This document shows positions 1 through 10,214 of a stretch of 10,214 bases of DNA, piece by piece. The DNA lies in the NCBI GenBank assembly GCA_000004985.1, contig GG739011.1. One strand, written 5' to 3'. Under the pieces are notes generated by a model, which saw only the letters and a list, made by a program, of their open reading frames with translations, had not been told where the DNA came from and did no database searches. The translations under genes and the position numbers were made by a program. The DNA is from Naegleria gruberi (Eukaryota). Position 1 is the stretch's first letter; every line of letters starts with the position of its first letter.

Positions 1-1
1 G

Positions 2-919
2 ATCTGCATATAAATATTTGATACAATTTACAACACCATAGTATACATATTGGTCCTGTTCAGTATCATTTTCATCAATTATTGGTTGTTGAGTTTTGAA
101 ATATTTACATCTGGTTTGAATTTGATCGTATGAAAGACATTCTTGACCACATAATTTCAGTATTTCAGTTGTATAATTGTATTGTTCTTTTGTAAACTGT
201 TTGGATTTCAACATCATGAAACTATGCCATTCTAATTCATTAGCGAATGGAGCAAACTTATTTGAAGGATCAGTTACTTTGTATGGGTTGTTGACAGAAA
301 AATTTTCTAAAACTAAATCTTCAATATCTTCATAAGGATTGACATCTTTCAAATTGATATCAGTATCATTTTGAATTTGTGAGATTTTCCACTTAATATC
401 TGTTAGCTCTGTATTTTTATCAGTTGGTGTCCATGTTGATTCAAAACCTCCACACTCCAATGTATCATTTTGAGGAGTAATGACATGCTGTAAAGATGTA
501 TTTGTAGAGGAGCTGAGCTTTACTGGTTTTTCTGGTTTAGATAAACATAATCTCTTTAACGGTTGATGTTCTATCGCGCTCTTTGTGTTGGTTTGATGTT
601 TAAAATTGATATGATCGACATATTCCTCCATTGTGGTGTAATGTTTATCACAACACACTTTTGGAAACTTGATGGAATGTTCTTTTGTAATATGTTTCAA
701 CAACGTTTCAGATTTGACACAACTATAATCACATAAACAACATCCAAGTTTTTCCTTAGTAAAATTTTTACACTCAGAGTTTTCACAGTTACATTTAATT
801 TGAATCTTGAATTTTGCACTTGAAATTGGTTGGTAAAATACTGTGTGTAAAGATTTCTTGCAAGAATCACAGCGTCTTTCAAAATAGATACCTTGTTCCT
901 TGTTATTTTGTAAAGACAT
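2..919 (-). CDS. Cys/His-rich protein with two tandem C2H2-type zinc fingers; 3'-partial, C-terminus lies beyond window start
   Basis: Hand translation of the minus strand from ATG (plus 919-917) to position 2 gives 306 codons with no stop in ~70% AT DNA: MSLQNNKEQGIYFERRCDSCKKSLHTVFYQPISSAKFKIQIKCNCENSECKNFTKEKLGCCLCDYSCVKSETLLKHITKEHSIKFPKVCCDKHYTTMEEYVDHINFKHQTNTKSAIEHQPLKRLCLSKPEKPVKLSSSTNTSLQHVITPQNDTLECGGFESTWTPTDKNTELTDIKWKISQIQNDTDINLKDVNPYEDIEDLVLENFSVNNPYKVTDPSNKFAPFANELEWHSFMMLKSKQFTKEQYNYTTEILKLCGQECLSYDQIQTRCKYFKTQQPIIDENDTEQDQYVYYGVVNCIKYLYAD. Finger 1 (plus 677..742) is C-x2-C-x12-H-x4-H (CCLCDYSCVKSETLLKHITKEH). Finger 2 (596..655) is CCDKHYTTMEEYVDHINFKH. Two further clusters, C-x2-C and C-x-C-x4-C, lie upstream. 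The start has an A-rich context (gaaaaaaaATGtc). Caveat: the same frame stays open upstream through 997 into the mask, so the true start could be further 5'. Confidence 0.7.
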   Translation of the reverse strand, partial: MSLQNNKEQGIYFERRCDSCKKSLHTVFYQPISSAKFKIQIKCNCENSECKNFTKEKLGCCLCDYSCVKSETLLKHITKEHSIKFPKVCCDKHYTTMEEYVDHINFKHQTNTKSAIEHQPLKRLCLSKPEKPVKLSSSTNTSLQHVITPQNDTLECGGFESTWTPTDKNTELTDIKWKISQIQNDTDINLKDVNPYEDIEDLVLENFSVNNPYKVTDPSNKFAPFANELEWHSFMMLKSKQFTKEQYNYTTEILKLCGQECLSYDQIQTRCKYFKTQQPIIDENDTEQDQYVYYGVVNCIKYLYAD

Positions 920-977: not shown

Positions 978-984
978 ATGCCAG
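978..984 (+). CDS. Putative mini first exon (ATG CCA G) followed by a consensus 5' splice donor; rest of gene masked
   Basis: The sequence aataaATGccagGTAAGTa has an ATG with A at -3, and the seven nucleotides ATGCCAG run straight into an exact 9/9 match to the MAG|GTRAGT donor consensus (CAG|GTAAGT, donor GT at 985-986). Everything downstream is N. Confidence 0.3.
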
Positions 985-997
985 GTAAGTACTTCCA

Positions 998-2479: not shown

Positions 2480-3517
2480 AATCCAACAAGTAATAGAAAA
2501 TTAAATAATTTTACATTTGATTTTAATTCATTTCCATATTTAAAATATTTATTTCTTGATATTACCTATATTTATACATTGGAATCAATTAGTAATGTAT
2601 TAAATTCAAATAATATTTCAAAATTACAAGAATTTGGATTTGGAACTAATAGAAAATTTATTGAAAAATTACAATTTAATTCTAGTGAAAATTTAAAAAA
2701 TTTAAAAAAATTATTTTTAAATAGAACCGAAATGATGACAAATATAGATAATCTTCCTTCATTAGAATTATTATATATAGATGAATATGAAAAAAAGTTT
2801 TATTCCACTGCAAACTATTCAAAACCATGGAATTTAGCATCTAATGTGAAAATGCCATCTCTAAAATATTTACATTTAAATCTTATAAATGAAACTCATT
2901 TACCTGATAGATTAAATGTGGAATCATTTAAAAATATTAAATATTTTTATTTTGAATCTCAATATAATATTGATTTATCAGAATTGAGTAAATTAAATTT
3001 AGAAATATTAATTCTTAAAATTTCTTTAAAATATAACAAGAATATATTTCATCACATTTCTAAAATATCAACCTTGAGAGATTTAACATTTCGTAAGCCT
3101 ATTTGGGATATTGATTTGAAATTACTTTGTAAATTACCAAATTTAGAATATCTTAATATTAGATTGGAATTTAAAAGTGAAATATCTTTTACTTTTAATT
3201 CACTAACTACACTCTCAATTTATTCAGATAATTTGAAAGGATTAAACTTTTTTCAAATATCAAATTTACCAAAATTGAAAACTTTAATAATTCGTAATGA
3301 TTTGGATAATAACCATACGTGGTGGTTGCAACCATTATTTCCAAATTTACAAATAATTAAAGCAAGTTATACCAGTTTTGGAATATTTTTAGCATCTCAA
3401 TATAATGATGGTATGAATTTTGGTGAGTATGAGGTTTCACAAAGAACAGCAACTCATTTACAAAATGAATATGTATGGCTCTTTCCAAAAAAATTTATTT
3501 TTGGCAATGCTCAATAA
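2480..3517 (+). CDS. Leucine-rich repeat (LRR) protein; 5'-partial, reading frame enters from the masked region
   Basis: The frame is open from the first unmasked base (2480, NPTSNRKLNNFTFDFNSFPYLKYLFLDITYIYTLESISNV...) to TAA at 3515-3517, 345 codons. The track's start at 2579 is a TTG, not a real start; the first in-frame ATG is near 2730. Repeated LxxLxLxxN-type segments include NLKNLKKLFLNRT, NLPSLELLYIDEY, MPSLKYLHLNLINET, LSKLNLEILILKISL, LPNLEYLNIRLEF, LTTLSIYSDNLKGLNFFQISNLPKLKTLIIRND and FPNLQIIKASY. GC is very low (about 15-28% in hand-counted 60-nt samples), with codon bias toward TTA, AAT, AAA and ATT. Confidence 0.7.
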   Translation, partial: NPTSNRKLNNFTFDFNSFPYLKYLFLDITYIYTLESISNVLNSNNISKLQEFGFGTNRKFIEKLQFNSSENLKNLKKLFLNRTEMMTNIDNLPSLELLYIDEYEKKFYSTANYSKPWNLASNVKMPSLKYLHLNLINETHLPDRLNVESFKNIKYFYFESQYNIDLSELSKLNLEILILKISLKYNKNIFHHISKISTLRDLTFRKPIWDIDLKLLCKLPNLEYLNIRLEFKSEISFTFNSLTTLSIYSDNLKGLNFFQISNLPKLKTLIIRNDLDNNHTWWLQPLFPNLQIIKASYTSFGIFLASQYNDGMNFGEYEVSQRTATHLQNEYVWLFPKKFIFGNAQ

Positions 3518-3555
3518 TGTTTGTAAACATTTCATATTATGGAATGCTAAGGAGA

Positions 3556-6500
3556 NNNNNNNNNNNNNNNNNNNNNNNNNNNNNNNNNNNNNNNNNNNNN
3601 NNNNNNNNNNNNNNNNNNNNNNNNNNNNNNNNNNNNNNNNNNNNNNNNNNNNNNNNNNNNNNNNNNNNNNNNNNNNNNNNNNNNNNNNNNNNNNNNNNNN
3701 NNNNNNNNNNNNNNNNNNNNNNNNNNNNNNNNNNNNNNNNNNNNNNNNNNNNNNNNNNNNNNNNNNNNNNNNNNNNNNNNNNNNNNNNNNNNNNNNNNNN
3801 NNNNNNNNNNNNNNNNNNNNNNNNNNNNNNNNNNNNNNNNNNNNNNNNNNNNNNNNNNNNNNNNNNNNNNNNNNNNNNNNNNNNNNNNNNNNNNNNNNNN
3901 NNNNNNNNNNNNNNNNNNNNNNNNNNNNNNNNNNNNNNNNNNNNNNNNNNNNNNNNNNNNNNNNNNNNNNNNNNNNNNNNNNNNNNNNNNNNNNNNNNNN
4001 NNNNNNNNNNNNNNNNNNNNNNNNNNNNNNNNNNNNNNNNNNNNNNNNNNNNNNNNNNNNNNNNNNNNNNNNNNNNNNNNNNNNNNNNNNNNNNNNNNNN
4101 NNNNNNNNNNNNNNNNNNNNNNNNNNNNNNNNNNNNNNNNNNNNNNNNNNNNNNNNNNNNNNNNNNNNNNNNNNNNNNNNNNNNNNNNNNNNNNNNNNNN
4201 NNNNNNNNNNNNNNNNNNNNNNNNNNNNNNNNNNNNNNNNNNNNNNNNNNNNNNNNNNNNNNNNNNNNNNNNNNNNNNNNNNNNNNNNNNNNNNNNNNNN
4301 NNNNNNNNNNNNNNNNNNNNNNNNNNNNNNNNNNNNNNNNNNNNNNNNNNNNNNNNNNNNNNNNNNNNNNNNNNNNNNNNNNNNNNNNNNNNNNNNNNNN
4401 NNNNNNNNNNNNNNNNNNNNNNNNNNNNNNNNNNNNNNNNNNNNNNNNNNNNNNNNNNNNNNNNNNNNNNNNNNNNNNNNNNNNNNNNNNNNNNNNNNNN
4501 NNNNNNNNNNNNNNNNNNNNNNNNNNNNNNNNNNNNNNNNNNNNNNNNNNNNNNNNNNNNNNNNNNNNNNNNNNNNNNNNNNNNNNNNNNNNNNNNNNNN
4601 NNNNNNNNNNNNNNNNNNNNNNNNNNNNNNNNNNNNNNNNNNNNNNNNNNNNNNNNNNNNNNNNNNNNNNNNNNNNNNNNNNNNNNNNNNNNNNNNNNNN
4701 NNNNNNNNNNNNNNNNNNNNNNNNNNNNNNNNNNNNNNNNNNNNNNNNNNNNNNNNNNNNNNNNNNNNNNNNNNNNNNNNNNNNNNNNNNNNNNNNNNNN
4801 NNNNNNNNNNNNNNNNNNNNNNNNNNNNNNNNNNNNNNNNNNNNNNNNNNNNNNNNNNNNNNNNNNNNNNNNNNNNNNNNNNNNNNNNNNNNNNNNNNNN
4901 NNNNNNNNNNNNNNNNNNNNNNNNNNNNNNNNNNNNNNNNNNNNNNNNNNNNNNNNNNNNNNNNNNNNNNNNNNNNNNNNNNNNNNNNNNNNNNNNNNNN
5001 NNNNNNNNNNNNNNNNNNNNNNNNNNNNNNNNNNNNNNNNNNNNNNNNNNNNNNNNNNNNNNNNNNNNNNNNNNNNNNNNNNNNNNNNNNNNNNNNNNNN
5101 NNNNNNNNNNNNNNNNNNNNNNNNNNNNNNNNNNNNNNNNNNNNNNNNNNNNNNNNNNNNNNNNNNNNNNNNNNNNNNNNNNNNNNNNNNNNNNNNNNNN
5201 NNNNNNNNNNNNNNNNNNNNNNNNNNNNNNNNNNNNNNNNNNNNNNNNNNNNNNNNNNNNNNNNNNNNNNNNNNNNNNNNNNNNNNNNNNNNNNNNNNNN
5301 NNNNNNNNNNNNNNNNNNNNNNNNNNNNNNNNNNNNNNNNNNNNNNNNNNNNNNNNNNNNNNNNNNNNNNNNNNNNNNNNNNNNNNNNNNNNNNNNNNNN
5401 NNNNNNNNNNNNNNNNNNNNNNNNNNNNNNNNNNNNNNNNNNNNNNNNNNNNNNNNNNNNNNNNNNNNNNNNNNNNNNNNNNNNNNNNNNNNNNNNNNNN
5501 NNNNNNNNNNNNNNNNNNNNNNNNNNNNNNNNNNNNNNNNNNNNNNNNNNNNNNNNNNNNNNNNNNNNNNNNNNNNNNNNNNNNNNNNNNNNNNNNNNNN
5601 NNNNNNNNNNNNNNNNNNNNNNNNNNNNNNNNNNNNNNNNNNNNNNNNNNNNNNNNNNNNNNNNNNNNNNNNNNNNNNNNNNNNNNNNNNNNNNNNNNNN
5701 NNNNNNNNNNNNNNNNNNNNNNNNNNNNNNNNNNNNNNNNNNNNNNNNNNNNNNNNNNNNNNNNNNNNNNNNNNNNNNNNNNNNNNNNNNNNNNNNNNNN
5801 NNNNNNNNNNNNNNNNNNNNNNNNNNNNNNNNNNNNNNNNNNNNNNNNNNNNNNNNNNNNNNNNNNNNNNNNNNNNNNNNNNNNNNNNNNNNNNNNNNNN
5901 NNNNNNNNNNNNNNNNNNNNNNNNNNNNNNNNNNNNNNNNNNNNNNNNNNNNNNNNNNNNNNNNNNNNNNNNNNNNNNNNNNNNNNNNNNNNNNNNNNNN
6001 NNNNNNNNNNNNNNNNNNNNNNNNNNNNNNNNNNNNNNNNNNNNNNNNNNNNNNNNNNNNNNNNNNNNNNNNNNNNNNNNNNNNNNNNNNNNNNNNNNNN
6101 NNNNNNNNNNNNNNNNNNNNNNNNNNNNNNNNNNNNNNNNNNNNNNNNNNNNNNNNNNNNNNNNNNNNNNNNNNNNNNNNNNNNNNNNNNNNNNNNNNNN
6201 NNNNNNNNNNNNNNNNNNNNNNNNNNNNNNNNNNNNNNNNNNNNNNNNNNNNNNNNNNNNNNNNNNNNNNNNNNNNNNNNNNNNNNNNNNNNNNNNNNNN
6301 NNNNNNNNNNNNNNNNNNNNNNNNNNNNNNNNNNNNNNNNNNNNNNNNNNNNNNNNNNNNNNNNNNNNNNNNNNNNNNNNNNNNNNNNNNNNNNNNNNNN
6401 NNNNNNNNNNNNNNNNNNNNNNNNNNNNNNNNNNNNNNNNNNNNNNNNNNNNNNNNNNNNNNNNNNNNNNNNNNNNNNNNNNNNNNNNNNNNNNNNNNNN

Positions 6501-8735
6501 NNNNNNNNNNNNNNNNNNNNNNNNNNNNNNNNNNNNNNNNNNNNNNNNNNNNNNNNNNNNNNNNNNNNNNNNNNNNNNNNNNNNNNNNNNNNNNNNNNNN
6601 NNNNNNNNNNNNNNNNNNNNNNNNNNNNNNNNNNNNNNNNNNNNNNNNNNNNNNNNNNNNNNNNNNNNNNNNNNNNNNNNNNNNNNNNNNNNNNNNNNNN
6701 NNNNNNNNNNNNNNNNNNNNNNNNNNNNNNNNNNNNNNNNNNNNNNNNNNNNNNNNNNNNNNNNNNNNNNNNNNNNNNNNNNNNNNNNNNNNNNNNNNNN
6801 NNNNNNNNNNNNNNNNNNNNNNNNNNNNNNNNNNNNNNNNNNNNNNNNNNNNNNNNNNNNNNNNNNNNNNNNNNNNNNNNNNNNNNNNNNNNNNNNNNNN
6901 NNNNNNNNNNNNNNNNNNNNNNNNNNNNNNNNNNNNNNNNNNNNNNNNNNNNNNNNNNNNNNNNNNNNNNNNNNNNNNNNNNNNNNNNNNNNNNNNNNNN
7001 NNNNNNNNNNNNNNNNNNNNNNNNNNNNNNNNNNNNNNNNNNNNNNNNNNNNNNNNNNNNNNNNNNNNNNNNNNNNNNNNNNNNNNNNNNNNNNNNNNNN
7101 NNNNNNNNNNNNNNNNNNNNNNNNNNNNNNNNNNNNNNNNNNNNNNNNNNNNNNNNNNNNNNNNNNNNNNNNNNNNNNNNNNNNNNNNNNNNNNNNNNNN
7201 NNNNNNNNNNNNNNNNNNNNNNNNNNNNNNNNNNNNNNNNNNNNNNNNNNNNNNNNNNNNNNNNNNNNNNNNNNNNNNNNNNNNNNNNNNNNNNNNNNNN
7301 NNNNNNNNNNNNNNNNNNNNNNNNNNNNNNNNNNNNNNNNNNNNNNNNNNNNNNNNNNNNNNNNNNNNNNNNNNNNNNNNNNNNNNNNNNNNNNNNNNNN
7401 NNNNNNNNNNNNNNNNNNNNNNNNNNNNNNNNNNNNNNNNNNNNNNNNNNNNNNNNNNNNNNNNNNNNNNNNNNNNNNNNNNNNNNNNNNNNNNNNNNNN
7501 NNNNNNNNNNNNNNNNNNNNNNNNNNNNNNNNNNNNNNNNNNNNNNNNNNNNNNNNNNNNNNNNNNNNNNNNNNNNNNNNNNNNNNNNNNNNNNNNNNNN
7601 NNNNNNNNNNNNNNNNNNNNNNNNNNNNNNNNNNNNNNNNNNNNNNNNNNNNNNNNNNNNNNNNNNNNNNNNNNNNNNNNNNNNNNNNNNNNNNNNNNNN
7701 NNNNNNNNNNNNNNNNNNNNNNNNNNNNNNNNNNNNNNNNNNNNNNNNNNNNNNNNNNNNNNNNNNNNNNNNNNNNNNNNNNNNNNNNNNNNNNNNNNNN
7801 NNNNNNNNNNNNNNNNNNNNNNNNNNNNNNNNNNNNNNNNNNNNNNNNNNNNNNNNNNNNNNNNNNNNNNNNNNNNNNNNNNNNNNNNNNNNNNNNNNNN
7901 NNNNNNNNNNNNNNNNNNNNNNNNNNNNNNNNNNNNNNNNNNNNNNNNNNNNNNNNNNNNNNNNNNNNNNNNNNNNNNNNNNNNNNNNNNNNNNNNNNNN
8001 NNNNNNNNNNNNNNNNNNNNNNNNNNNNNNNNNNNNNNNNNNNNNNNNNNNNNNNNNNNNNNNNNNNNNNNNNNNNNNNNNNNNNNNNNNNNNNNNNNNN
8101 NNNNNNNNNNNNNNNNNNNNNNNNNNNNNNNNNNNNNNNNNNNNNNNNNNNNNNNNNNNNNNNNNNNNNNNNNNNNNNNNNNNNNNNNNNNNNNNNNNNN
8201 NNNNNNNNNNNNNNNNNNNNNNNNNNNNNNNNNNNNNNNNNNNNNNNNNNNNNNNNNNNNNNNNNNNNNNNNNNNNNNNNNNNNNNNNNNNNNNNNNNNN
8301 NNNNNNNNNNNNNNNNNNNNNNNNNNNNNNNNNNNNNNNNNNNNNNNNNNNNNNNNNNNNNNNNNNNNNNNNNNNNNNNNNNNNNNNNNNNNNNNNNNNN
8401 NNNNNNNNNNNNNNNNNNNNNNNNNNNNNNNNNNNNNNNNNNNNNNNNNNNNNNNNNNNNNNNNNNNNNNNNNNNNNNNNNNNNNNNNNNNNNNNNNNNN
8501 NNNNNNNNNNNNNNNNNNNNNNNNNNNNNNNNNNNNNNNNNNNNNNNNNNNNNNNNNNNNNNNNNNNNNNNNNNNNNNNNNNNNNNNNNNNNNNNNNNNN
8601 NNNNNNNNNNNNNNNNNNNNNNNNNNNNNNNNNNNNNNNNNNNNNNNNNNNNNNNNNNNNNNNNNNNNNNNNNNNNNNNNNNNNNNNNNNNNNNNNNNNN
8701 NNNNNNNNNNNNNNNNNNNNNNNNNNNNNNNNNNN
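3556..8735. other. Run of 5180 N (masked/unknown bases)
   Basis: Literal n characters. It lies directly upstream of the carbamate kinase fragment, so it must contain at least the N-terminal part of that gene. Confidence 1.
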
Positions 8736-8741
8736 AAATGA

Positions 8742-9416
8742 CAAGGCTTCCAACATCCTAACAAGCCTGTTGGTAAATTCCTCTCTCCTGAAGAGTATGA
8801 ATCATCAAAGAAGGACAAACAAATGATGACTTTCCACAAGTTTGATGAAGGCTACAGAAGAGTTGTTCCTTCTCCAACACCTATTGATATCATTGAATTG
8901 GACACTATCAAAACACTCTTCAATGAAGGACACTTGGTTATTTGTAATGGAGGTGGAGGTATCCCTGTTGTTAAAAGCCGAGATGAAGTTGGTGGTGATG
9001 AGAAAGCAATGATTGGTAAAAAGCAAGCACAAAGAAAGAACCACCTGATGGGCATAGAAGCAGTCATTGACAAGGATAGATCCAGTTCCCTGCTAGCACA
9101 AAAGCTTACTGTCGATTACTTTATCATTCTCACCAAAGTGGATCATGTCTACTTGAATTACTCTTCAAAAAAGGAGGAGAAGAAGCCTATTACTTCAATG
9201 GATGTTGAAACTGCTCGACAATACATTACGGAAGGATGCTTTGAAGAAGGTACCATGCTACCAAAGATTGAATCAGCCACTGAATTTGTTACCAAGACTG
9301 GAAAACCTGCTCTCATCACAAGCTTGGACAATTTCATCAGAGAAACTTCCAAGCAAGGAGATGTTAACAATGAAATCAAACTACGTCATATTGAAGGTAC
9401 TTGGATTGTTCCATAA
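8742..9416 (+). CDS. arcC: Carbamate kinase (amino-acid kinase family), C-terminal ~225 residues; 5' part masked
   Basis: Translation from 8742 is QGFQHPNKPVGKFLSPEEYESSKKDKQMMTFHKFDEGYRRVVPSPTPIDIIELDTIKTLFNEGHLVICNGGGGIPVVKSRDEVGGDEKAMIGKKQAQRKNHLMGIEAVIDKDRSSSLLAQKLTVDYFIILTKVDHVYLNYSSKKEEKKPITSMDVETARQYITEGCFEEGTMLPKIESATEFVTKTGKPALITSLDNFIRETSKQGDVNNEIKLRHIEGTWIVP*. It aligns block for block with the carbamate kinases I recall from memory (Enterococcus and Giardia): FxNPTKPIGxF, GRGWRxVVPSPxPIDIxE, GGGGIPVV (8949..8972), GVEAVIDKD, LVILTxVDxVxINY, GSMxPKIEAA (MLPKIESA around 9255..9278), AIITSL and GTVV. The in-frame ATG at 8823 is internal (a conserved CK block lies upstream of it). There is an in-frame TGA at 8739-8741 flush with the mask edge. 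Confidence 0.85.
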   Translation, partial: QGFQHPNKPVGKFLSPEEYESSKKDKQMMTFHKFDEGYRRVVPSPTPIDIIELDTIKTLFNEGHLVICNGGGGIPVVKSRDEVGGDEKAMIGKKQAQRKNHLMGIEAVIDKDRSSSLLAQKLTVDYFIILTKVDHVYLNYSSKKEEKKPITSMDVETARQYITEGCFEEGTMLPKIESATEFVTKTGKPALITSLDNFIRETSKQGDVNNEIKLRHIEGTWIVP

Positions 9417-9457
9417 ATCTAAAAATTCTATCATGATCCAACAACATTCACAACATT

Positions 9458-9463
9458 AATAAA
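9458..9463 (+). terminator. Candidate polyadenylation signal AATAAA for the carbamate kinase transcript
   Basis: The hexamer aataaa lies 42 nt downstream of the TAA stop (9414-9416) and is followed by a T/GT-rich stretch (ggtaattattcgtgatattt). The stop codon itself also forms TAAA (9414-9417), the short poly(A) signal type described in parabasalids. Confidence 0.35.
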
Positions 9464-9544
9464 CAATAGTGGTAATTATTCGTGATATTTAAATCAAAAC
9501 AAGAAAAAAATTCCCTTCATGGATGTTGAACTTGGTGTTGCTTT

Positions 9545-9578
9545 TATTTTTTAAAAAAATTAAAAAAAATTAAAAATG
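9545..9578. repeat. A/T low-complexity tract with short direct repeats (aaaaaaatt x2, aaaaat)
   Basis: The sequence tttattttttaaaaaaattaaaaaaaattaaaaatgtaaaa lies in the intergenic region downstream of the carbamate kinase gene. Confidence 0.5.
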
Positions 9579-9793
9579 TAAAATCTTGAAGAAGAGATTA
9601 GAGATCAAACAACAGTTGGTTGGTTAGCAGGATGAAATATTGTTGTGCTTTGCTTTTTTGAAAAGGATCTCCATTACCTGAAATTTCATCAATATTTGCT
9701 TACTATGTATGTATCATACAGACCAAAAAAATTGAAGGCTTGGTATCCTTGATATTTCCATCAAGCTTTCAGTAAATATTGGAGGTAGATATT

Positions 9794-9988
9794 ATGTTTA
9801 TCGGATCAGTAATTCAAGGGTTTGAATTGGTCATTAAGATAATACAATTCATACAAGACAGGAGAAATTCTTGCAAAAAGCTACCGAATCGAAGCTTCCG
9901 TATGTTGTTCAATGATCAAAAGGCTTTTCAGCACAGCACATTTTCCACCAAACCTTCCTCTTTTCACAAGTTTCATGAAACCTTGTAA
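9794..9988 (+). CDS. Small hypothetical ORF (64 aa), possibly non-coding
   Basis: ATG at 9794 to TAA at 9986-9988 translates to MFIGSVIQGFELVIKIIQFIQDRRNSCKKLPNRSFRMLFNDQKAFQHSTFSTKPSSFHKFHETL. A GGAGGT lies 7 nt upstream (9781-9786). I recognise no similarity, and an open frame of this length is not unusual in ~35-40% GC DNA. Confidence 0.15.
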   Translation: MFIGSVIQGFELVIKIIQFIQDRRNSCKKLPNRSFRMLFNDQKAFQHSTFSTKPSSFHKFHETL

Positions 9989-10196
9989 TAGTTGGTACAA
10001 AACTATAGTAATTTGTCCAAGATGGTCAAGTAATTACAGAAAGGGCAGGTAGTATCCTGAACGATTTACTAAATTTTGGATGGTTGTTGACTTGTATGTA
10101 CAGCCGTTGAGGGTATTTGATGGATACATTATTTTACTGCAATTACCGAGGGTTGATTGTTACAGGCAAAACACATCACAAAAAAACATCAACACA

Positions 10197-10214
10197 ATGG
10201 CAACTGACACATTA
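10197..10214 (+). CDS. Possible start of a gene running off the window end (MATDTL...)
   Basis: The context acaATGGca is Kozak-like (A at -3, G at +4) and is preceded by an A/C-rich leader (cacaaaaaaacatcaacaca). Only 6 codons are visible. Confidence 0.15.

Follow-up and report, generated by a model that had tools for sequence, protein, structure and literature searches.

A gap-truncated carbamate kinase gene fragment in Naegleria gruberi with two predicted loop insertions

Known carbamate kinases and the Naegleria fragment

Carbamate kinases (CKs) and CK-like enzymes with solved structures include those of Enterococcus faecalis (PDB 1B7B, 2WE4, and 2WE5), the eukaryote Giardia lamblia (PDB 3KZF and 4JZ7), and the hyperthermophilic archaeon Pyrococcus furiosus (a CK-like carbamoyl phosphate synthetase; PDB 1E19). 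A protruding subdomain is unique to CKs, and its limits and key residues have been described (PMC3659122, PMC3474736). The eukaryotic CK clan comprises sequences from Fornicata, Parabasalia, Harpagon, Pygsuia, and Mastigamoeba, and Harpagon, an anaerobe, possesses the full arginine deiminase (ADI) pathway (PMC5052871). CK is recorded there from many eukaryotic lineages, and the original prediction's view of eukaryotic CKs as essentially restricted to parabasalids and diplomonads is out of date.

We analyzed a window of 10,214 nucleotides, a complete scaffold (contig GG739011.1) of Naegleria gruberi (Table 1). This free-living amoeba is a model organism, and how far it is capable of anaerobic energy metabolism is under debate. 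It is an aerobic heterolobosean (Heterolobosea, Discoba), so the anaerobic source to which the CK gene had originally been taken to point was wrong. The open reading frame in the 3′ part of the window quite probably belongs to a genuine nuclear CK gene of N. gruberi that is cut by an assembly gap, which leaves its 3′ two-thirds, and that carries two translated loop insertions.

Table 1. Features of the CK locus in the analyzed window
Feature	Position	Strand	Basis or remark
Assembly gap, 5,180 N	3556..8735	.	N-free islands: 1-997, 2480-3555, and 8736-10214
N-D-K-A, four codons, in a frame that runs one base ahead of the main CK frame (or two bases behind it)	8737..8748	+	Two-frame reading
CK coding fragment, 224 codons	8742..9413	+	Corresponds to E. 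faecalis CK residues ~121-310
Protruding (auxiliary) subdomain, residues 1-46	8742..8879	+	Residues 2-46 aligned with 122-170 of E. faecalis; 125-170 in Giardia; model
GGGGIPVV motif (G70-V77), first hairpin strand	8949..8972	+	Invariant columns G70-G73 and P75
Insertion 1, GGDEKAMIGKKQAQRKNH, G84-H101, net +18 aa, hairpin tip	8991..9044	+	Spacing, model, codon usage
GIEAVIDKD motif (G104-D112), second hairpin strand	9051..9077	+	Invariant G104, A107, V108, I109, D110, K111, and D112
Small third expansion, YSSKKEEKK	9159..9185	+	+2 residues versus bacterial CKs, +1 versus Harpagon group
GTMLPK motif (G170-K175)	9249..9266	+	Invariant columns G170, M172, P174, and K175
Insertion 2, DVNNEIKLRHIE, D207-E218, +12 aa, between last helix and terminal strand GTWIVP	9360..9395	+	Spacing, alignment, model
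Terminal strand GTWIVP and stop TAA (9414-9416)	9396..9416	+	Aligned with GTxIxP C-termini of homologues
AATAAA hexamer, possible polyadenylation signal, 42 nt past stop	9458..9463	+	Consensus match alone

As originally proposed, the fragment is a CK; it is a divergent, new member of the known family (arcC, EC 2.7.2.2) and not a new kind of enzyme. It matches the Pfam AA_kinase model (PF00696) with an E-value of 2.6e-17 (63.8 bits; model cutoff, 24.9) and the NCBIfam arcC model (TIGR00746) with 190.4 bits (E-value, 3.6e-56). Because a third of the protein is missing and an insertion divides the match, the arcC score stays under the cutoff of 358 set for full-length sequences. All six matches in a PDB sequence search were CKs. 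The best solved-structure sequence match is the E. faecalis enzyme (118.6 bits), with the P. furiosus enzyme at 108.9 bits and the Giardia CK at 106 bits (31-35% identity); the Giardia protein does not stand out as close, since the best database matches reach 162-172 bits. The AlphaFold model of the fragment (pLDDT, 83) matches CK structures, and the best 15 Foldseek matches are all CKs (TM, 0.62-0.75, with 0.73-0.74 for E. faecalis, which has the same fold). In addition, the fragment keeps all of the 31 columns that are invariant in an alignment with 49 homologues (50 sequences), including K8, R39, GGGG, AVIDKD, and MxPK, in agreement with the original statement that the conserved CK blocks are present. 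Membership in another amino-acid-kinase subfamily (N-acetylglutamate kinase [NAGK], UMP kinase, or glutamate 5-kinase), hinted at by weak matches to the argB (24 bits), pyrH (18 bits), and proB (17 bits) models (E-values of 2e-5 or worse), is refuted for practical purposes by the far higher arcC score, the PDB matches, the presence of the CK-only protruding subdomain, and the Foldseek search, in which NAGK and UMP kinase come next at about 1e-6 and CKs stand on top by about five or more orders of magnitude in E-value.

By homology, the reaction of the Naegleria CK would be phosphate transfer between carbamoyl phosphate and ADP. The N-domain, the mobile protruding subdomain (K8 and R39), and AVIDKD (K111 and D112) would together form the carbamoyl-phosphate site, whereas ADP would be bound in the C-domain at GTMLPK (K175); the domains were assigned from PMC3474736 and the alignment. 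K8 corresponds to E. faecalis K128 and R39 to E. faecalis R158 and Giardia R163, both in invariant columns. The second hairpin strand leads to the catalytic K111/D112 pair (E. faecalis K209/D210), and K175 is the counterpart of K271 of E. faecalis, which belongs to the C-terminal domain that binds ADP. The protruding subdomain is modelled with the elements E8-14, H16-25, E30-34, and E37-42. According to column frequencies, its mobile loop reads HKFDEG in the Naegleria CK in place of the near-invariant EDAGRG, which is found in E. faecalis; the Harpagon-group CKs have HDKxRGG.

The known enzymes share the core of the Naegleria CK but not its insertions. In E. faecalis, the hairpin reads GGGGIPVVGQELKGVEAV, and Naegleria has 18-19 additional residues there and 12 before the last strand. 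The Giardia CK, which has the same fold and catalytic residues, and the P. furiosus enzyme, which has the same fold and motifs, lack the insertions, as do the Harpagon-group CKs (spacings of 12 and 31). Just one further sampled CK, a CK-like protein of Corallochytrium limacisporum (EukProt Clim_evm7s182, P0228; VVKKVEKDDEGKEFKRFEAVDAV, spacing 20), carries a sizeable K/E-rich insertion at this hairpin tip. Its insertion measures 8 aa and is unrelated in sequence to that of Naegleria; the protein lacks a second insertion, and its N terminus is extended by 258 aa.

Relatives and metabolic context

The most identical sequence to the Naegleria CK is P0121 (50.5% by BLASTP and 55% by HMMER), which is itself 72% identical to the cluster containing the CK of Harpagon schusteri (AMQ24268.1, P0404). 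This heterolobosean group, which also includes P0287 and P0288, has the C-terminal GTxIxP seen in Naegleria. No relative with more than 55% identity was present among 1.84 billion cluster representatives, and protein database searches returned no orthologue from other Naegleria species.

The gene could have been acquired by lateral transfer from a bacterium (Thermotogota/Bacillota-like) and not inherited from a heterolobosean ancestor common to Harpagon. Bacterial and Harpagon-group matches score about equally (162 versus 172 bits by HMMER, 172 versus 172 by BLASTP), no rare residues are common to the Naegleria CK and the Harpagon group, and no CK was seen in the other Naegleria species in the database searches. 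In a neighbour-joining tree (100 bootstraps, 191 sites), Naegleria groups with Harpagon in at most 8% of replicates. However, this tree is low in power, with 191 sites and a long Naegleria branch that joins any sister with at most 18% support; the Giardia CK joins that of the metamonad Aduncisulcus, away from Naegleria. Moreover, the highest overall identity is to a member of the Harpagon group, a one-residue indel (+1) at NYxx-K is common to Naegleria and that group, and the OTC of N. gruberi groups with those of Harpagon and metamonads (PMC5052871). Taken together, we consider a bacterial origin doubtful rather than far-fetched.

The 2016 survey of ADI-pathway enzymes across eukaryotes credits N. 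gruberi in its text with OTC, while ADI and CK are not listed for it, and Naegleria is not mentioned in the text-format supplementary files (PMC5052871). A literature search found no published description of an N. gruberi CK. The most likely physiological role of the enzyme would be to yield ATP from citrulline- or arginine-derived carbamoyl phosphate at low oxygen, a role favoured by the metamonad/Harpagon-type OTC of the same organism (PMC5052871). The CK joins the N. gruberi gene inventory and, with OTC, would allow ATP to be obtained from citrulline or arginine. The anabolic direction, which the P. furiosus enzyme shows to be possible for a CK, is by analogy possible for the Naegleria CK as well.

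A more far-reaching proposal, which we regard as unlikely, is that the aerobe N. gruberi has kept, from a heterolobosean ancestor common to it and the anaerobe Harpagon, an OTC-CK module, possibly even the whole arginine dihydrolase pathway, for substrate-level ATP synthesis. The CK would then have been missed by the dedicated survey because its gene model is partial and unnamed. The Naegleria-only loops, one of them acidic-then-basic and located at the hairpin beside the carbamoyl-phosphate site, would be functional and not neutral under this proposal, for instance in regulation, partner binding, or OTC channelling. The opposite view, that they are tolerated additions, is taken up with the insertions below.

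Gene fragment at the edge of the assembly gap

The CK frame ends with the codon CCA (Pro, 9411-9413) before the stop, giving 224 residues and not the 225 originally counted. The protein is already present in NCBI as XP_002668566.1/EFC35822.1 (N. gruberi, "predicted protein, partial"; 100% identical), and in a collection of 15 billion proteins the exact gene-model sequence occurs on a single contig, with no second contig carrying it. Homologues align to the fragment from about their residue 120 onward. The 5′ third of the gene falls inside the N gap: ~120 codons, among them those for GGNAL and HGNGPQVG, together with the promoter and any introns. These two sequences are the N-terminal phosphate-binding motifs of CKs. 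The setting of the gene is eukaryotic, with ATGCCAG/GTAAGT at 978-989, an AT-rich LRR open reading frame, and an ORF-poor 3′ flank of ~800 bp. Scans of the window for tRNAs and Rfam families returned no match.

Directly 5′ of the open CK frame lies a TGA (8739-8741). In the shifted frame, the four codons N-D-K-A fit the [ND]-D-x-A that stands nearly invariant in front of F-Q-x-P-T-K-P in CKs; homologues read KDDAFQHPTKPVG and NDPAFENPTKPIG. This match in another frame implies that one T is missing in GCT(T)TC at 8748-8750, which would place the TGA out of frame, so that it is no real stop. A read-end error is the likeliest cause of the frame break, since the site lies 13 nt from the gap edge.

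The break at 8748 could also mark a decaying or nonfunctional CK pseudogene, in which the insertions and the change from EDAGRG to HKFDEG would equally reflect relaxed constraint. The long branch of the Naegleria CK, the failure of the protein database searches to return an orthologue from another Naegleria, and the absence of the gene from the eukaryotic CKs in the survey text (PMC5052871) would fit such a scenario. Nevertheless, 224 codons are open in DNA of 39% GC, every checkable catalytic residue is intact along with the 31 invariant columns, and both insertions are multiples of three with coding-like codon usage. Read-end errors are common at gap edges such as the one beside the break, and an Asp is likewise lacking from that loop window in 57 of 371 other pattern-matching homologues, with some of the pattern matches lying outside the subdomain loop. 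A pseudogene is therefore quite improbable, and we retain the reading of a genuine gene truncated by the gap.

Insertions within the reading frame

Two Lys/Glu-rich insertions had been proposed to lack counterparts in the E. faecalis and Giardia CKs, and this holds. The spacing from GGGGIP to xAVIDKD is 30 in the Naegleria CK, whereas it is 11-13 in 374 of 391 homologues, 7-16 in 390, and 20 in the remaining one. Aligned by HMMER, the CKs of Aeropyrum pernix and Giardia show a 19-residue gap at insertion 1, and the matches to the E. faecalis and P. furiosus proteins are split there into two stretches. The 24-residue segment first assigned to it (K78-H101, 8973-9044) holds ~6 normal hairpin residues; the insertion itself is real, with a net length of 18. 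The second spacing is 43, compared with 28-34 in the 391 homologues. Here, the insertion stood at 12 aa and not ~10, but the proposed C-terminal extension did not, as the protein ends in GTWIVP like the GTxIxP of its homologues. None of the ~390 other CKs sampled has either insertion, and P0121 and Harpagon CK, the nearest relatives, are among those without them. In metagenomes, no contig was found to encode a CK containing DEKAMIGK or KQGDVNNE.

The two insertions look like coding sequence and not introns and would represent in-frame, translated, species-specific loops. Both are multiples of three with coding-like codon usage; for insertion 1, the codon-usage log-odds equal 6.4, compared with 7.6 ± 2.4 for the coding sequence and -5.6 ± 5.5 for noncoding windows. 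An origin by local duplication was rejected, with only chance-level repeats of 11-16 nt and no tandem repeats in the coding sequence.

Insertion 1 could in principle be a short in-frame, stop-free intron left unspliced by the gene model, for example at 8988-9038 (51 nt), where removal of a GT..AG pair restores the canonical spacing of 13 (VVKSRDE/NHLMGIEAV). Stop-free stretches do arise by chance, as ~25% of the 72-nt noncoding windows in the scaffold contain no stop. Yet one such pair is uninformative, since listing all in-frame GT..AG pairs gave 33 in the insertion-1 region, and the donor of this candidate (GTTGGT) is unlike the GTAAGT at 985, the sole clear donor sequence of the window. At 9016, GTAAAA looks better as a donor, but its use would remove the invariant G104. 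Furthermore, the candidate is 74% purine, has no pyrimidine tract, and contains no T at codon position 1; its codon-usage log-odds of 8.1 exceed those of 85% of true coding windows and are reached by 0.13% of noncoding windows. The same protein also has K/E-rich additions that cannot be introns, namely, the SSKKEEKK expansion and insertion 2, for which an intron was rejected because it has no in-frame GT..AG pair. An intron at insertion 1 is thus very unlikely.

As translated segments, the insertions most likely form charged and flexible loops at the surface that the protein tolerates and that have no catalytic role; both are modelled away from the conserved core. Insertion 1 would lengthen the tip of a hairpin that enters AVIDKD through its second strand, and insertion 2 would precede the last β-strand. 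The surface-loop character originally suggested is consistent with the AlphaFold model: insertion 1 is modelled as a disordered loop (pLDDT below 50 for residues 83-97) with strands 76-78 and 102-104 on either side, and the block-mean pLDDT is ~66 for residues 201-210, which span the start of insertion 2, and 82 for residues 211-220. The Naegleria enzyme is a modest curiosity that leaves the understanding of CKs unchanged. Its insertions point to two sites at which the CK fold tolerates large additions, and they would provide useful signatures for recognizing Naegleria-type CKs.

Identity of the carbamate kinase fragment

In frame 8739, a TGA codon is followed by 224 sense codons (8742 to 9413) and a TAA stop (9414 to 9416). 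A protein search returned a 100% identical 206-amino-acid NCBI entry (XP_002668566.1/EFC35822.1, "predicted protein, partial [Naegleria gruberi]"), a protein known from a single contig. The fragment matches Pfam AA_kinase (E value of 2.6e-17) and the NCBIfam carbamate kinase (CK) equivalog arcC (E value of 3.6e-56, 190 bits), compared to just 17 to 24 bits for the acetylglutamate kinase, UMP kinase, and glutamate 5-kinase models. The sequence search against solved structures yielded six matches, every one a carbamate kinase. The AlphaFold2 model, computed from a 50-sequence alignment, has a mean pLDDT of 83.2 and a pTM of 0.79. Its best 15 PDB structure matches are likewise all carbamate kinases (E values of 1e-17 to 1e-11; TM, 0.62 to 0.75), with acetylglutamate and UMP kinases next in the ranking at approximately 1e-6. 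In addition, all 31 columns that are invariant across the 50 aligned sequences are kept, including K8, R39, GGGGIP, AVIDKD (K209/D210), and GxMxPK (K271). The protruding subdomain specific to CKs contributes K8 and R39, the counterparts of K128 and R158 in E. faecalis (PMC3659122). The original prediction of a carbamate kinase is upheld by these data, and the other amino-acid-kinase subfamilies that it named as alternatives are ruled out by the arcC score, the CK-only sequence matches, and the CK-first structure ranking. The locus is a real, correctly located, divergent CK gene fragment of N. gruberi; it adds to a well-known enzyme family, and its sequence is already public, unnamed.

The protruding, mobile subdomain carries HKFDEG in place of the near-invariant EDAGRG loop. 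Relative to that loop, the replacement lacks two residues between Asp and Gly and has Glu for Arg; D35 was paired with the conserved Asp in the large alignment. This loop Asp was called invariant in a study of the Giardia enzyme, in which D157 was suggested to assist closure of the active site (PMC3659122). Other sampled CKs without this Asp were returned by a motif search.

The N-terminal third of the gene falls inside a gap, at the edge of which the reading frame is broken by one base. CK homologues read [ND]-D-[PD]-A-F-Q-[NH]-P-T-K-P-V-G at this site. Adding one T to GCTTC (8746 to 8750) yields NDKAFQHPNKPVG, which is matched at 10 of 13 positions by P0121, a CK of the Harpagon group. Since the restored reading matches CKs, the TGA at 8739 to 8741 is not in the coding frame, and coding sequence homologous to CKs extends as far as the gap edge at 8737. 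With the break 13 nt away from the contig end, a read-end error is its likeliest cause; less probably, it is a true frameshift and the locus a pseudogene.

Features of the CK fragment and of the neighboring sequence
Feature	Position	Strand	Description
One-base frame break	8737-8750	+	Frame 8737, N-D-K-A; frame 8739, (Q-G-)F-Q-H-P-N-K-P-V-G
HKFDEG loop	8835-8852	+	H32-G37
Insertion 1, GGDEKAMIGKKQAQRKNH	8991-9044	+	G84-H101; MAFFT alignment with nearest relatives
Minor third Lys/Glu-rich expansion, SSKKEEKK	9159-9185	+	Two extra residues; alignment with relatives
Insertion 2, DVNNEIKLRHIE	9360-9395	+	D207-E218; spacing and alignment with relatives
306-codon ORF	1-919	-	Starts at 919, runs off scaffold end
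ATGCCAG/GTAAGTACTTCCA	978-997		Start codon with two and a third codons, then consensus 5' splice site (ATGCCAG/GTAAGT, 978-989), into first gap
Leucine-rich-repeat ORF	2480-3517		Weak Pfam LRR_14/LRR_4 matches; 21% GC
ATGGCAACTGACACATTA	10197-10214		After A-rich leader, runs off scaffold end

Extent, coding status, and position of the insertions

When the fragment is aligned by HMMER with the CKs of Aeropyrum and Giardia, the segment after GGGGIPVV faces a 19-residue gap, and at insertion 1 its matches to E. faecalis and P. furiosus CK each fall into two stretches. The GGGGIP-to-xAVIDKD distance equals 30 residues, compared to 11 to 13 in 374 of 391 homologues, 7 to 16 in 390, and 20 in the last one. 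These homologues comprised the 119 best word-index matches, 149 of 1.84 billion representatives of clusters formed at 50% identity, and neighbors of the closest relative. Similarly, the MxPK-to-terminal-GTxI distance is 43, versus 28 to 34 in the sampled homologues. Both spacings set the insertions apart from the sampled CKs, and the extents first given for them were revised. The first is present, but the 24 residues originally assigned to it (8973 to 9044) include approximately six of the ordinary hairpin, leaving a net 18. The second is confirmed at 12 residues without the proposed C-terminal extension, as the terminal GTWIVP is in register with the GTxIxP ends of relatives. The only other sizeable hairpin-tip insertion in the sample (eight K/E-rich residues) occurs in a EukProt protein of the eukaryote Corallochytrium limacisporum, consistent with the suggestion that such loops are typical of protist orthologues of bacterial-type enzymes.

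Insertion 2 holds no in-frame GT..AG pair of at least 24 nt and is therefore not a simple retained intron. Around insertion 1 there are 33 in-frame pairs, and removing one candidate intron (8988 to 9038, 51 nt) would give back the normal hairpin length. This reading is nevertheless very improbable: the donor GTTGGT differs from the only clear donor of the window (GTAAGT), and the candidate is 74% purine and lacks a pyrimidine tract. Under a codon-usage model trained on the remaining coding sequence of the scaffold, it has a log-odds of 8.1, above 85% of real coding windows and reached by just 0.13% of equal-length noncoding windows. The entire insertion 1 scores 6.4, compared to 7.6 ± 2.4 for coding and -5.6 ± 5.5 for noncoding windows, and -3.7 and -11 in its other two frames. 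We conclude that both insertions are coding, with a small chance left that insertion 1 is an intron. Repeat searches found no sign of their origin by local duplication.

In the AlphaFold2 model, insertion 1 lies between strands 76 to 78 and 102 to 104, and pLDDT values under 50 for residues 83 to 97 point to an unstructured loop at a beta-hairpin tip. In Mycoplasma penetrans CK, the N-terminal domain extends to approximately residue 222 and supplies the carbamoyl-phosphate site, helices alpha1 to alpha3 make the dimer interface, and the C-terminal domain binds ADP (PMC3474736). From this boundary and the alignment, the hairpin falls in the final part of the N-domain, and its second strand leads straight into AVIDKD. 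In the transition-state model of the Giardia enzyme, the valine of this motif makes contact with the nitrogen of the carbamoyl group (PMC3659122). Insertion 1 is at the distal tip of the hairpin. Insertion 2 separates the last helix (195 to 203) from the last strand (220 to 223) of the ADP-binding domain, with mean pLDDT values of 66 (residues 201 to 210) and 82 (residues 211 to 220). The two loop insertions are species specific, translated, and probably flexible; we infer that they may be neutral surface loops.

Relatives and origin

No close relative was found in any collection searched. After the self-match, the word-index search returned bacterial CKs (Thermotogota and others; 46 to 48% identity, up to 162 bits). 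The exhaustive HMMER search of cluster representatives gave one better match, P0121 (172 bits, 55% identity), which by BLASTP (50.5% identity, 172 bits) has the same score as the best bacterial match. P0121 is encoded by four transcript-sized contigs (approximately 1.05 kb, AT-rich, short UTRs; Logan SRR6808581, SRR6808584, SRR6808589, and SRR6808591), probably from another psalteriomonad-like heterolobosean. It is 72% identical to P0287, the 90%-identity cluster of which contains Harpagon schusteri CK (AMQ24268.1). The highest identity found for the Naegleria enzyme is therefore with a CK from Heterolobosea, the group to which the anaerobe Harpagon belongs. Unlike the Naegleria CK, the Harpagon group lacks both insertions. 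Another Logan protein related to this group, P0289 (412 amino acids), combines OTC (PF00185) and CK (PF00696) domains in a single chain, similar to the rare arcC-OTC fusion reported for anaerobic ciliates (PMC13198582), although in the P0289 fragment the OTC-like portion comes before the CK portion.

The link to the Harpagon group is statistically insecure. In a neighbor-joining tree (44 sequences, 191 sites), the Naegleria branch is long, with bootstrap values of at most 18% for any sister and 8% for the Harpagon group, while Giardia CK clusters with the metamonad Aduncisulcus, apart from Naegleria. No rare residues common to the Naegleria CK and the Harpagon group were found, and no relative was detected among JGI metagenome contigs when these were scanned with six peptide patterns (DEKAMIGK and KQGDVNNE among them). 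We lean towards vertical descent in Heterolobosea with accelerated change. A separate acquisition from a bacterium is less favored but plausible in view of nearly equal bacterial scores, low bootstrap values, and the lack of shared rare residues.

Distribution, predicted function, and neighboring sequence

The original prediction held eukaryotic CK to be essentially restricted to parabasalids and diplomonads, which is overturned by a survey that reported it in all metamonads examined, diatoms, dinoflagellates, and eight other species (Novak et al. 2016, PMC5052871). The inference about the source also fails, the organism being an aerobic amoeboflagellate. The identification as a CK and the claim of unique insertions hold up; the biological inference does not. 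The survey places N. gruberi OTC in a clade with metamonads and Harpagon, and its text names neither CK nor arginine deiminase (ADI) for N. gruberi. No description of a Naegleria CK was found in the searchable literature. GenBank has listed the sequence for years under a partial model without a name, and the gene was apparently overlooked by the dedicated survey. This apparent omission is the chief point of interest; what the locus contributes concerns the metabolic inventory of Naegleria and the question of the gene's origin, rather than the insertions themselves.

As predicted from its sequence, the protein would interconvert carbamoyl phosphate and ADP with carbamate and ATP. Together with OTC, it would permit ATP synthesis from citrulline, or from arginine if ADI is present. 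By analogy with the CK-like enzyme of P. furiosus, an anabolic direction is possible.

Real sequence in the window is limited to three islands (1 to 997, 2480 to 3555, and 8736 to 10214), the remainder being N. The CK fragment sits at the start of the third. Only N gaps connect the three islands, which makes their linkage dependent on scaffolding. tRNA and Rfam scans of the window returned no tRNA and no Rfam family, and a Pfam search assigned no significant family to the 306-codon ORF, which is Cys/His-rich near its N terminus (CDSC..., CLCDYSC...KH..H). The non-CK islands look eukaryotic and AT-rich. The GC content of the leucine-rich-repeat ORF compares to 31 to 35% in the other two islands. 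The stretch ATGCCAG/GTAAGTACTTCCA is probably exon 1 of an unseen gene, and ATGGCAACTGACACATTA may mark the start of the next gene.
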